This document shows, piece by piece, positions 30,401 to 48,163 of a stretch of DNA of 64,000 nt; the first letter of the stretch is position 1, and each line of letters opens with the position of its first letter. The notes below the pieces were generated by a model, which made no database searches, was not told where the DNA came from, and was given only the letters and a program-made list of their open reading frames with translations. Both the position numbers and the translations under genes were made by a program. The DNA comes from Octopus vulgaris (lineage: Eukaryota): NCBI GenBank assembly GCA_951406725.2, contig OX597840.1, positions 36,394,001 to 36,458,000 on the forward strand, read 5' to 3'.

Positions 30401-33400
30401 GTCCTCTGAAAGGCATTTGTCTGCAGCCATTTAGATTCCTGCTTCTAACTATGGTAATGGCACAGTGTAAAATGAATGATGGATCTCGAAGCAATCCAGC
30501 AAAGCTACACAAAAAAGATTGTCTCAATGCGACTTCAGCTAATGGCAGAAACTGAAAAAGCTAATCTATTCCTTAAAATAAAGGCAGGAAAGATATAGTG
30601 ATATAGATCTGGAAAATGCTAGAACATCTTTGGCATTGTAAGTTACACAAATAGCAGAATGGGGTGGTAACACCACTGCATAGTACCAAAGTCACCAGCA
30701 TACAGGACCAGATACTGCAGCAGCTTGGATTTCAAGGGTCCACAACTCTTCAACATCTTTCCACGAAGTCTGAGAGAACTACATGAGGTGGATGAAGGTG
30801 TCTTCAAAACAAAACTGGATCTCCTCCACTTAAAAGTTTCAGATTAACCTATCCTCTGTTAAGAAATGCAGACGAAGTCAGCAACATTAAACCTCCTCAT
30901 TCACTGTATGTCACACATCAGTGAAGGTTAATTGAAAGGGTAGCAAAGCTAATCGTTGGTACCCCAGCATAGTTGCAGCTCTTGAGCTAAAACTAGTAAA
31001 GAAATATATATATATATAAAGAAAATCAAGTGTCAGGACTTGACTACTGAGACTATTGCAGTCATCTGCCATAGTTTCTAAGTAAAATCAATGCACCATT
31101 TTGTGTAGAAGGCAGATCTGGAACCAAAGCTCTTGAAGAAAAGCACCCCCTCCTCCCCCCAAAAGCTATGGTGTTGGAGATCACTTCAATGGGGTTGTAG
31201 TTGACAGAAGATTATAGATGGGACCCTTTTTCTAAGGAAGGCTAATTCAGGTTAAGAGGACAAATGCCTTGTGATTGTGAGATACCTGCTGAAGATACAG
31301 AAGGAGTTCAAACAATGAGATAACATTAGTTACCTGCAGAAGAATGTGCAATGCAAGAATTTTCTGTAGTTTCTCAGTGGGGCAGAGAATTTCTCATGTT
31401 TAATTCACCCATATATCAGAATACATGTGTATTGATATATATATTTATATGCACATGTGTGTGTTTATGTGTGAGTATGTGTGTACATGTACATATATAT
31501 ATGTATATGCATATACATATATCCATATTTGCACATTTATATGTTTGCGTGTATATCTGTATACTTTTATTAATACACACACACACATGTATTTACATAT
31601 ATACATATATATCTTATATAAATTAGTTAATGTGGCTGAAATTGATGTTTAACCAACCTAATTGGTGCTGTTAAGTCAGACATGTTTCTATAGAATTTCG
31701 ATGGAAGCATCCAGTTGAATATCAAATTCCAGTCAAAACGGCCTATTTGTATGCTACTTCCTACTGAAGTGACAAAGTGTAGTGTACTGTCATCAATCTG
31801 GTCAATCACTGGGGTCACAGCATAGCGCTTGTCAGTAGCTATTCGATCAAGAATAGGCTCCAGCCAGCCTGGATATAAAATTAGACAATTATTTTAACTG
31901 GTTAAATGTCTACATCTCTGTAAATTAGTTTGTTTATCATTAATAAGAGTATAATTTTTGCCAATAATAAATTAACCTCATTATCTTAAGAGATAGTATT
32001 TAGTTACAGCATTTCATCTTCCAGGTACTCAAGTCAAAATTTGCCTTTGATTGTAGAAGCTAATAGAATAAAATTGATTTAGTCAGTTAAGCTCTCTTCA
32101 AATATATGCTTTCATCAGACATCAATATTTTCATTTACAATTCCACACAGCTTTGATTTCTGTTCTTGGATGAGTACAAAGTACAAGACTGAACTTTCAA
32201 TCATTTTCTGATTTCTGATCTGACGTTTCTCAGAGCGAATCCTATGAATAAATTCAAGTATACTATGAAATAAGAAGTCTGATTAAAAATTTGTTTTAGC
32301 AAAAAAAAAAAAAAAAAATCCCCCCAAAAATTATATTTACCATTTTCAGAATATTAAGTTATCATATATTGTATATTATTTAAATAAAAGCTCTCAAACA
32401 GTTTTCATTTAATATAAAATGGCAGAGTTGTCTTTAAATTATGGTTTTGCATTCCACGATTTTTGACAAAATCATTTAACAGATTCTGTGACAAAATAAG
32501 TTTAGGAATGTATTTCATCACAACACCATTGACACAGGAATTTGAAGTGATATTCCCTTCAGTTTAGAAATAAAGGTTTCCTGGTTCTAATTCAGTCTGA
32601 TACAGTGTAGTTTGACTATTTCTAGGAATAAGACAATGACTAAAGATGAAACTGATTGATACAAATGTTTTATGTTCATCTCTAAGAGTGAACGAGGTTA
32701 ATGGTTTGGAAAATTATAATCTTATTTTAAACAATTTAATTATGCATCCAGTTTAATTGTTATTTGCTTGGTATAAATAAAAAAAATGTTTTTAAAACAA
32801 TATAAAGAAAGAATGTAATAATAGCTAAACAAAAATAATAAAGAATTGAATAATAATAATAATAATAATAATAATAATAAAAATGAAAACAATATCAACA
32901 ACAGTAACAACAATACTGATTTTGTTTGTCTCTCCTACATGTTACTATATGCGGCCTTCGGTGCACTAACACCTTGTCTGTCTGGAAGTCAAGGCCCCAG
33001 AAGATCTTTGCCCTCTCGCTTTCGTCCATTACCTTTTCCAGTGTATGTTGGTACCAAGCACCCAATTACCTCATAGCCATACTTCCAGTTCAGTCGTCAG
33101 TGAATGCTTTGTCGTTTCTGTGCTCTTTCTGCACAAGACTTTCACAAGCATTTAACAATGCAAGTCATGCTTTCATCCTCCTACCCACACATGCTGCACG
33201 GTTCATTGCACTTTTATGGTATATACATCCGTTTTCCCTGAGTTGGTATCCAATGCCAGGTCCTGGGCAGTGACGATTAGGCTTTCAGTTTTCTTTCAAG
33301 GTTACTCTTGCTGAGCCACCTCCACGATGCTTCCCCACGGTACACACAATATCTTCAATCTACAACATCACAATATTGGATACTGTGCAACACTTTCAAT

Positions 33401-48163: not shown

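Follow-up and report, generated by a model that had tools for sequence, protein, structure and literature searches.

Evidence for a three-way mutually exclusive exon cassette in the acceptor-groove segment of an octopus PGANT9-type GalNAc-transferase gene

Can a single octopus gene, by choosing among three homologous exons, encode three polypeptide GalNAc-transferases that differ in the groove receiving the acceptor peptide? This question is raised by exons A, B and C, which lie on the minus strand of the window, i.e., the whole stretch of 64,000 nt that was analysed. We begin with the gene that carries these exons, and then consider their integrity, their possible function, the way one of them might be chosen, and their age.

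Gene family and anatomy of the cassette

From the domains and motifs of its predicted product, the gene is a polypeptide GalNAc-transferase (CAZy GT27). PF00535, PF02709 and PF00652 scored above cut-off in all three isoforms, and the predicted fold consists of a GT-A catalytic domain and a ricin-type lectin domain behind an N-terminal helix (type II membrane anchor). The sequences DSHCE, WGGENLE and SHVGH, which we take to be the DxH motif, the Gal/GalNAc-T motif and the third metal-ligand histidine, respectively, are all located in constitutive exons. Drosophila PGANT9 was the best PDB sequence match for each of exons A, B and C, and PGANT9A was the top Foldseek match of the folded C isoform, with 58% identity as against 39-49% for the vertebrate enzymes; by sequence and by model, PGANT9 is the closest characterised GalNAc-transferase. 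We assume PGANT9 to be orthologous to gly-5 (the PGANT9 / gly-5 subfamily). Exon A shares 94-96% of its residues with cuttlefish-like proteins, that of Sepia pharaonis among them, and 70-81% with gastropod, bivalve and annelid proteins. The gene comprises four coding exons upstream of the window, then A, B and C, and, from there to the stop at 9294, six single exons, arranged as follows:

82056-67324 (window-equivalent), minus strand: coding exons 1-4, upstream of the window, mapped with neighbouring genome stretches
67488-67324 (window-equivalent, outside the window), minus strand: DxH exon (DSHCE), the last of the four upstream coding exons
48164..64000, minus strand: part of the 19,160-nt intron between the DxH exon and exon A, mapped with neighbouring genome stretches
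47950..48163, minus strand: exon A, 214 nt, the conserved canonical version (GGFDW..FTWH); acceptor ctag, donor GTATAT
36835..47949, minus strand: intron A-B, 11,115 nt, exceeding the range for steric exclusion
36627..36834, minus strand: exon B, 208 nt, the most diverged version (GRFDW..YRWM); acceptor acag, donor GTTAGT
31869..36626, minus strand: intron B-C, 4,758 nt, exceeding the range for steric exclusion
31658..31868, minus strand: exon C, 211 nt (GRFDW..FNWM); acceptor ccag, donor GTTGGT
20696..20813, minus strand: common downstream exon, 118 nt, SPTMAGG..WGGENLE with the Gal/GalNAc-T motif, single copy
18072..18257, minus strand: constitutive exon with the catalytic His and the flexible loop, single copy
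16022..16150, minus strand: constitutive exon, end of the catalytic domain and linker
13375..13479, minus strand: lectin alpha-repeat exon, single copy
11488..11616, minus strand: lectin beta-repeat exon
9294..9449, minus strand: last coding exon, lectin gamma repeat and stop codon

The cassette is thus placed between the DxH exon, which is 19.2 kb above A, and the SPTMAGG exon. Each of the three exons is preceded by AG and followed by GT, has an open frame, starts in phase 1 and ends in phase 2; the coordinates, lengths and splice sites given by the first-pass annotation were exact, and its frames and phases were confirmed with the sequence. All three lengths are 3n+1, and the rule it had drawn from them, that exactly one exon gives an intact protein, holds: SPTMAGG stays in frame in three of the eight inclusion combinations, namely A, B or C alone. 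With two or three exons included, the reading frame ends at nt 77 of B or at nt 20 of C, and in A+B, A+C and B+C alike the stop falls within the second exon.

A whole-protein profile run over 184 kb (window -20 kb to +164 kb) returned 13 exon matches, i.e., ten single exons plus A, B and C. Within that range, segment repetition is confined to the cassette, as had been stated for the other exons of the gene. Searches with a protein HMM and with nhmmer gave no fourth copy; a weak HMM match near 29,147 (E 0.096) was rejected as a broken, stop-riddled LINE-like stretch.

Acceptor-groove changes and integrity of exons B and C

The cassette segment aligns to residues 233-301 of human GalNAc-T2, which bears out its earlier description as the part of the acceptor groove between the DxH and Gal/GalNAc-T motifs, and contains the equivalents of I253, V255, F280, K281 and W282. 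In a modelling study of GalNAc-T2, F280, W282 and F361 are described as a proline pocket, and K281 as a gate for the +1 residue (bioRxiv 2020.06.25.171371). I253 and W282 are unchanged in A, B and C. At other T2-equivalent positions the residues of A/B/C are D/G/D (D254), V/L/Q (V255), G/R/R (G273), F/Y/F (F280), T/R/N (K281) and H/M/M (D283); at least 90% of the reference rows have Gly at the G273 position, which is Arg in both B and C. An N-glycosylation sequon is added near the exon end in B and C (NFS and NMS), and the metal ligands, the flexible loop and the lectin domain are shared by all isoforms.

The three exons are highly diverged from one another, with amino-acid identities of 29/67 (A-B), 29/69 (A-C) and 34/68 (B-C); this range of 42-50%, with all frames open, agrees with the hand estimate of about 40-50% and no stop or frameshift. 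Synonymous sites are near saturation (pS 0.71-0.80) and replacement sites are not (pN 0.34-0.44), the B-C pair having pN 0.34 and pS 0.80. Across 28 reference rows, 22 columns are conserved at a level of at least 90%; 21 of these are retained in A, 18 in C and 16 in B, and elsewhere in the segment identity to the Patella orthologue is 10/45 for B and 11/46 for C. Open frames of 68 codons were met in 145 of 3,828 sampled between 20,900 and 47,900, which corresponds to a chance of ∼4% per exon. Exons B and C are under purifying selection. Exon B is the weaker case, with a long branch (1.5 changes per column), 6/22 conserved columns lost, and the changes D254G and F280Y. AlphaFold2 models, which were made for the B and C isoforms from alignments dominated by A-type rows and which do not speak to activity, are predicted to be intact GalNAc-transferase folds with catalytic-domain blocks mostly at 85-97 pLDDT; confidence dips at the cassette end (block 411-420), to 66 in C and to 53, the lowest local confidence, in B.

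These changes make an altered peptide preference among the isoforms likely. We propose that the DxH exon is spliced to exactly one of A, B and C and then to the Gal/GalNAc-T exon, which would yield three Golgi enzymes with the same motifs for metal and donor binding, the same flexible loop and the same lectin domain. The isoforms would differ in ∼70 residues, including proline-pocket residues and the rim of the acceptor groove, and may glycosylate different peptide sequences because the equivalents of T2 D254, V255, G273, F280, K281 and D283 change. Considered as a whole, the locus is probably best explained as one gene with three isoforms in which the cassette acts as a specificity switch.

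Conceivably, the exons are spliced one at a time and the B and/or C enzymes nevertheless have the same, weaker or no activity, in which case the cassette would tune activity, stability or N-glycosylation instead of site choice, or B would be decaying. The replacement of G273 by Arg in both exons, the additional D254G and F280Y changes and long branch of B, and the NFS and NMS sequons near the ends of B and C would all fit such an outcome, and other GalNAc-transferase splice variants with no change of specificity are mentioned by Ji et al. (PMC6115407, Discussion). However, stand-alone paralogues in which DSHCE and WG(G/S)ENLE are intact, such as Patella XP_055959209 and a gene of this genome (G000:C9:112.87 Mb), likewise have Lys, Arg, Asn or Ile at G273 and Met at D283, so that such a variant does not preclude maintenance of the gene; moreover, I253 and W282 do not vary among A, B and C. 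We regard this outcome as unlikely.

Annotated isoforms and the mode of exclusion

In RefSeq, the GalNAc-T5-like cluster of Octopus sinensis consists of X1 (701 aa), X2 (700), X3 (699) and X4 (666). Exon A is found in X1 (XP_029652604) and X4, exon C in X2 (XP_029652605) and exon B in X3 (XP_029652606), in each case as a letter-for-letter match with identical flanks; this is the same gene with the same three segments, and all three exons are identical in O. sinensis and this genome. X1-X3 are full-length, single-inclusion automatic predictions (XP_), and we found no paper noting the cassette, its age or its position in the groove. Models of the XP_ kind are usually supported by introns from RNA-seq. 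Of 24 sequence rows, 18 contain exon B in whole or in part, none recorded as RNA, which bears neither way on expression. The O. sinensis record lies on a contig of 20,263,137 as against 40,227,843 for that of the window, and 3/196 residues of exon 1 differ; two assemblies therefore agree on the arrangement. Mis-assembly, which the first-pass annotation had named as a way in which its reading could fail, is argued against by this second assembly with the same three exons in one gene. The three-way mutually exclusive cassette that it had proposed is supported by the anatomy, the frame rule and three RefSeq isoforms with matching segments, and this octopus PGANT9-type GalNAc-transferase gene almost certainly carries it.

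The opposite reading, that B and C represent pseudo-exons that are not spliced, fragments of a paralogue or an error of assembly, could draw on the related WM-type segments of separate paralogous genes. It is very improbable in view of the second assembly, the continuity of the gene (no assembly gap lies inside it, and the sole N gap in 184 kb is at 7431-7530), the lack of any other duplicated exon nearby, the single occurrence of B and of C among the scored matches of the genome, and the low chance of an open frame estimated above.

How, then, might exclusivity be enforced? All cassette splice sites are GT-AG with U2-like donors and the introns are of kilobase length, so neither steric exclusion nor U2/U12 (minor-spliceosome) incompatibility applies. 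As to competing RNA pairings of the Dscam type, the best docking/selector duplexes, at -14 to -21 kcal/mol, were in or near the range of five shuffles each (400-600 nt flanks, single genome), and what similarity there was between flanks came from microsatellites or short AT-rich stretches. Constitutive exons of the gene have GTAAGT, GTGAGT or GTATGT and exon A has GTATAT, whereas those of B and C (GTTAGT and GTTGGT) depart at +3; among the relatives of B and C from metagenomes (see below), GTTAGT was found in locus L020 and GTGGGT twice in L021. Single-exon ORFs that run on as R-[F/L/W/C]-V, which implies a GT[T/G]NGT donor, account for 33 of 38 B/C-type rows (redundant, ∼ten families) as against 4 of 31 others. 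A weak donor thus appears to be conserved in B/C-type exons, which would make A the default.

The mode that remains is a regulated choice, in which A would be the default exon and B and C would be picked in particular tissues or stages by splicing regulators. Frameshifted messages with a premature stop are as a rule subject to nonsense-mediated decay, by which the zero-, two- and three-exon messages would be removed. That B and C should be mainly regulatory, lowering the enzyme level through co-inclusion with A, premature stop and decay, with single-inclusion messages as rare by-products, would suit the stops within the second exon of every pair and the non-consensus donors but is the least probable of the readings weighed here, because a poison exon does not need an open homologous frame, conserved columns are kept with synonymous sites saturated, and full-length single-inclusion isoforms are annotated.

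Age, spread and relation to known switches

A profile of B and C was run against 1.84 billion representatives (150 of 1,025 matches listed). Near the top of the matches listed stands a group of single-exon ORFs that share the pattern G[K/R]F[D/N]W..F-x-W-M and begin and end where exons B and C do. In a tree of 42 rows, a clade of 15 rows (97/93) unites B and C with animal exon ORFs, the Patella vulgata paralogue XP_055959209 and an octopus paralogue, a stand-alone gene (C9 at 112.87 Mb) with one F-x-W-M-type exon, and A groups with cuttlefish-like rows (100/96). Support for B+C was 95/89 in the first run and 82/84 in the second. These trees comprise 70 columns with long branches, and the motif by which the WM rows were selected is itself part of those columns; three rows missed by the pattern are absent from the first tree, and two of those also from the 42-row tree. 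A single clade of A+B+C was rejected (p-AU 0.0008), and with it a cephalopod-specific triplication, in a test run after the first tree had been seen, with nine near-duplicate rows dropped and two paralogue rows added. The presence of the Patella and octopus paralogues in the B/C clade indicates that this lineage predates the split between cephalopods and gastropods and that it also exists as a fixed exon. On this comparison of sequences, the duplication that separated A from B/C appears to be older than the cephalopod-gastropod split and the split between B and C probably came later; it is therefore unlikely that the cassette, ascribed in the first-pass annotation to a cephalopod gene, is a cephalopod invention. 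Searches for orthologues, which conceal isoforms inside clusters, gave no match to exon B among 23 candidates at E<=1e-10 (no close squid or cuttlefish orthologue) and one match to exon C among nine candidates, namely RefSeq O. sinensis X2, with no squid or cuttlefish orthologue. Neither B nor C was present in any of eight cuttlefish- or squid-like proteins with the segment (retrieved through exon A). Nor did these searches and the profile search yield an octopod or decapodiform orthologue of B or C distant enough, yet close enough, for dN/dS.

Duplication of this segment is seen elsewhere. A metagenome scan gave 16 loci, of which four were examined (L020, L021, L022 and L024) and one, L021, has a tandem pair: a 5.4-kb animal contig with two B/C-type exons of 208 and 214 nt, flanked by AG/GT with GTGGGT donors and with no other GalNAc-transferase exon in between. 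In a second GalNAc-transferase gene of this genome (C9, 90.03-90.11 Mb) the segment is present in two copies of 192 and 183 nt (both 3n, AG/GT), placed after the DxH exon and before the SPTMAGG exon. Among the 232 segment-bearing proteins in a set of 245, eight had at least two segment matches; P0100 was dropped as two whole domains, and P0139 and P0146 because their repeats take in neighbouring exons, and the cases kept were P0215 and four arthropod models. The latter, known from automatic gene models alone, have tandem copies of a shorter form (four in Halocaridina rubra and two each in Ladona fulva, Armadillidium vulgare and Diaphorina citri), and in the Ladona and Diaphorina models the downstream sequence is PGANT9-type.

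Several GalNAc-transferase genes are already associated with splice switches. The variants of Drosophila PGANT5A/B differ in catalytic-domain residues 398-457, a flexible loop and a helix-turn-helix, within which a single residue of the loop accounts for a ∼2.7-fold shift of kcat/KM with a mucin peptide (PMC12776162); the earlier placement of this switch in the lectin domain was wrong. PGANT5 resembles the octopus cassette as a case of alternative splicing inside a GalNAc-transferase catalytic domain, with peptide preference changed and tissue-biased use, but it has two variants, is an orthologue of GalNAc-T1, and owes most of the effect to one residue (PMC12776162). In contrast, the octopus gene is PGANT9-type and has three variants, in the DxH-to-Gal/GalNAc-T segment, in which 50-58% of the residues differ; the octopus exon that would correspond to the PGANT5 alternative segment (18072..18257) is single. 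A splice-encoded specificity switch in the catalytic domain has thus been described already, for a different segment. For PGANT9A/B the placement in the lectin domain was right, as exons 8A/8B swap the lectin alpha repeat and switch the charge preference for substrates (PMC6115407). PGANT9A/B is the closest solved relative of the octopus gene, whose alpha-repeat exon, however, is single. The alternative exons of C. elegans gly-5 are located in the lectin domain. Exons 9a/9b/9c of gly-5 and 8a/8b of gly-6 are mutually exclusive, and gly-5, which like the octopus gene has three homologous exons of this kind, is among the experimentally explored clusters (PMC4165533). Nevertheless, the worm exons are of 102-111 nt, all 3n, with introns of 34 nt and 11 nt that lead to steric exclusion (PMC4165533), whereas those of the octopus are 208-214 nt, 3n+1, and separated by kilobase introns. 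More generally, tandem-duplicated mutually exclusive exons are homologous, with the same phases, similar lengths and intact splice sites (PMC3228551, PMC8373072, PMC9741552), as are A, B and C, and the octopus cassette is a member of this class with no difference in principle.

No description of the octopus cassette was found in the main text of openly available papers, and the text of a review of invertebrate O-glycosylation (PMC6272458) has no occurrence of 'splic'. The statement in the first-pass annotation that no description was known consequently stands for this literature but not for automatic annotation, where the isoforms are already present. In essence, the splicing class, the kind of GalNAc-transferase switch and the annotated isoforms are known already; what is new is a three-way choice in an undescribed segment, diverged to the level of paralogues and apparently old and recurrent.

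Taking these observations together, we tentatively suggest, as a possibility that we hold at somewhat less than even, that animal GalNAc-transferases have in the DxH-to-Gal/GalNAc-T exon a portable module for acceptor recognition, and that this exon is a hotspot of duplication. Its F-x-W-M lineage would predate the split of the major mollusc classes, having been kept as alternative exons with a common weak donor GT[T/G]NGT in PGANT9-type genes and fixed in stand-alone paralogues, with parallels in the second octopus GalNAc-transferase gene, in crustaceans and in insects. If this is true, invertebrates would widen their O-glycoproteome by a groove module swapped through splicing, as vertebrates did by expanding to ∼20 genes, and should the trees and gene models be right about the age and recurrence of the exon lineage, the diversity of invertebrate GalNAc-transferases is undercounted by gene number. 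These enzymes choose their Ser/Thr sites without a consensus sequence, and prediction of that choice is still poor, since the differences between paralogues are spread over the whole protein. Three natural enzymes that are identical except for one 70-residue groove segment, and that differ there at the level of paralogues, would make the contribution of the segment directly measurable, and the octopus trio may serve as a naturally isogenic series from which the principles of site choice could be read.

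Exon 1, sequons and repeats of the PGANT9-type gene

The first exon of the octopus gene encodes an Asn-rich low-complexity stem:
82056-81469 (window-equivalent coordinates; L009): exon 1

In RefSeq X4, an Octopus sinensis isoform carrying exon A, 35 residues of this stem are missing, which possibly reflects the annotation of a repeat instead of a true splice. Among the alternative exons, an N-glycosylation sequon near the exon start is common to A and B (NKS, NHT); an extra one near the exon end was found in B (36627-36834) and C (31658-31868) as NFS and NMS, and is absent from A.

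Downstream of the gene, a long (TA/CA)-type microsatellite array occupies window positions ~3,500-6,400 and gives rise to pseudo-ORFs that run for as many as 773 codons without a stop; the sole N gap in the window (7431-7530, 100 nt) follows this array. The introns hold broken mobile-element remnants (~27,250-29,400 and 49,000-49,500) which, judging from their motifs, we take to include mariner/Tc1-like transposase pieces as well as LINE-like endonuclease and reverse-transcriptase pieces.

Paralogous GalNAc-T genes of octopus and Patella vulgata

In a second octopus GalNAc-T gene, on contig C9, the segment encoded by exons A, B and C is present in two tandem copies flanked by the DxH and SPTMAGG exons, and this gene is a candidate for a second cassette. 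A stand-alone paralogue on the same contig has WGSENLE in place of WGGENLE.
G000:C9:90099253-90099062 (L042; also L007): segment copy, second gene, 192 nt, 3n, AG/GT
G000:C9:90080547-90080365 (L041; also L006): segment copy, second gene, 183 nt, 3n, AG/GT
G000:C9:112,857,000-112,877,000 (L049-L051, L004): stand-alone paralogue, one segment copy of the B/C (F-x-W-M) lineage

The WM-type paralogue of Patella vulgata (P0168), in whose gene model a lectin domain was not detected, is probably on one chromosome with the PGANT9-type gene of that species (P0048), since both have the same longest-contig size on record (47,190,821).

Segment copies in other animals

An animal contig from a metagenome carries tandem B/C-type exons, both 3n+1 long with GTGGGT donors:
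L021:717-924: B/C-type exon
L021:3080-3293: B/C-type exon

A distinct segment type, GGFDW..F-x-W-I-G, forms a separate supported group (P0036, P0090, P0091, P0160, and P0195), one member of which is a separate, full-length gene. In automatic gene models of arthropods (P0076, P0077, P0078, and P0122) and in P0215, two to four diverged segment copies are strung together, those of the arthropod models terminating near GGF-x-W-x-L. These multi-copy models are probably unannotated exon cassettes.
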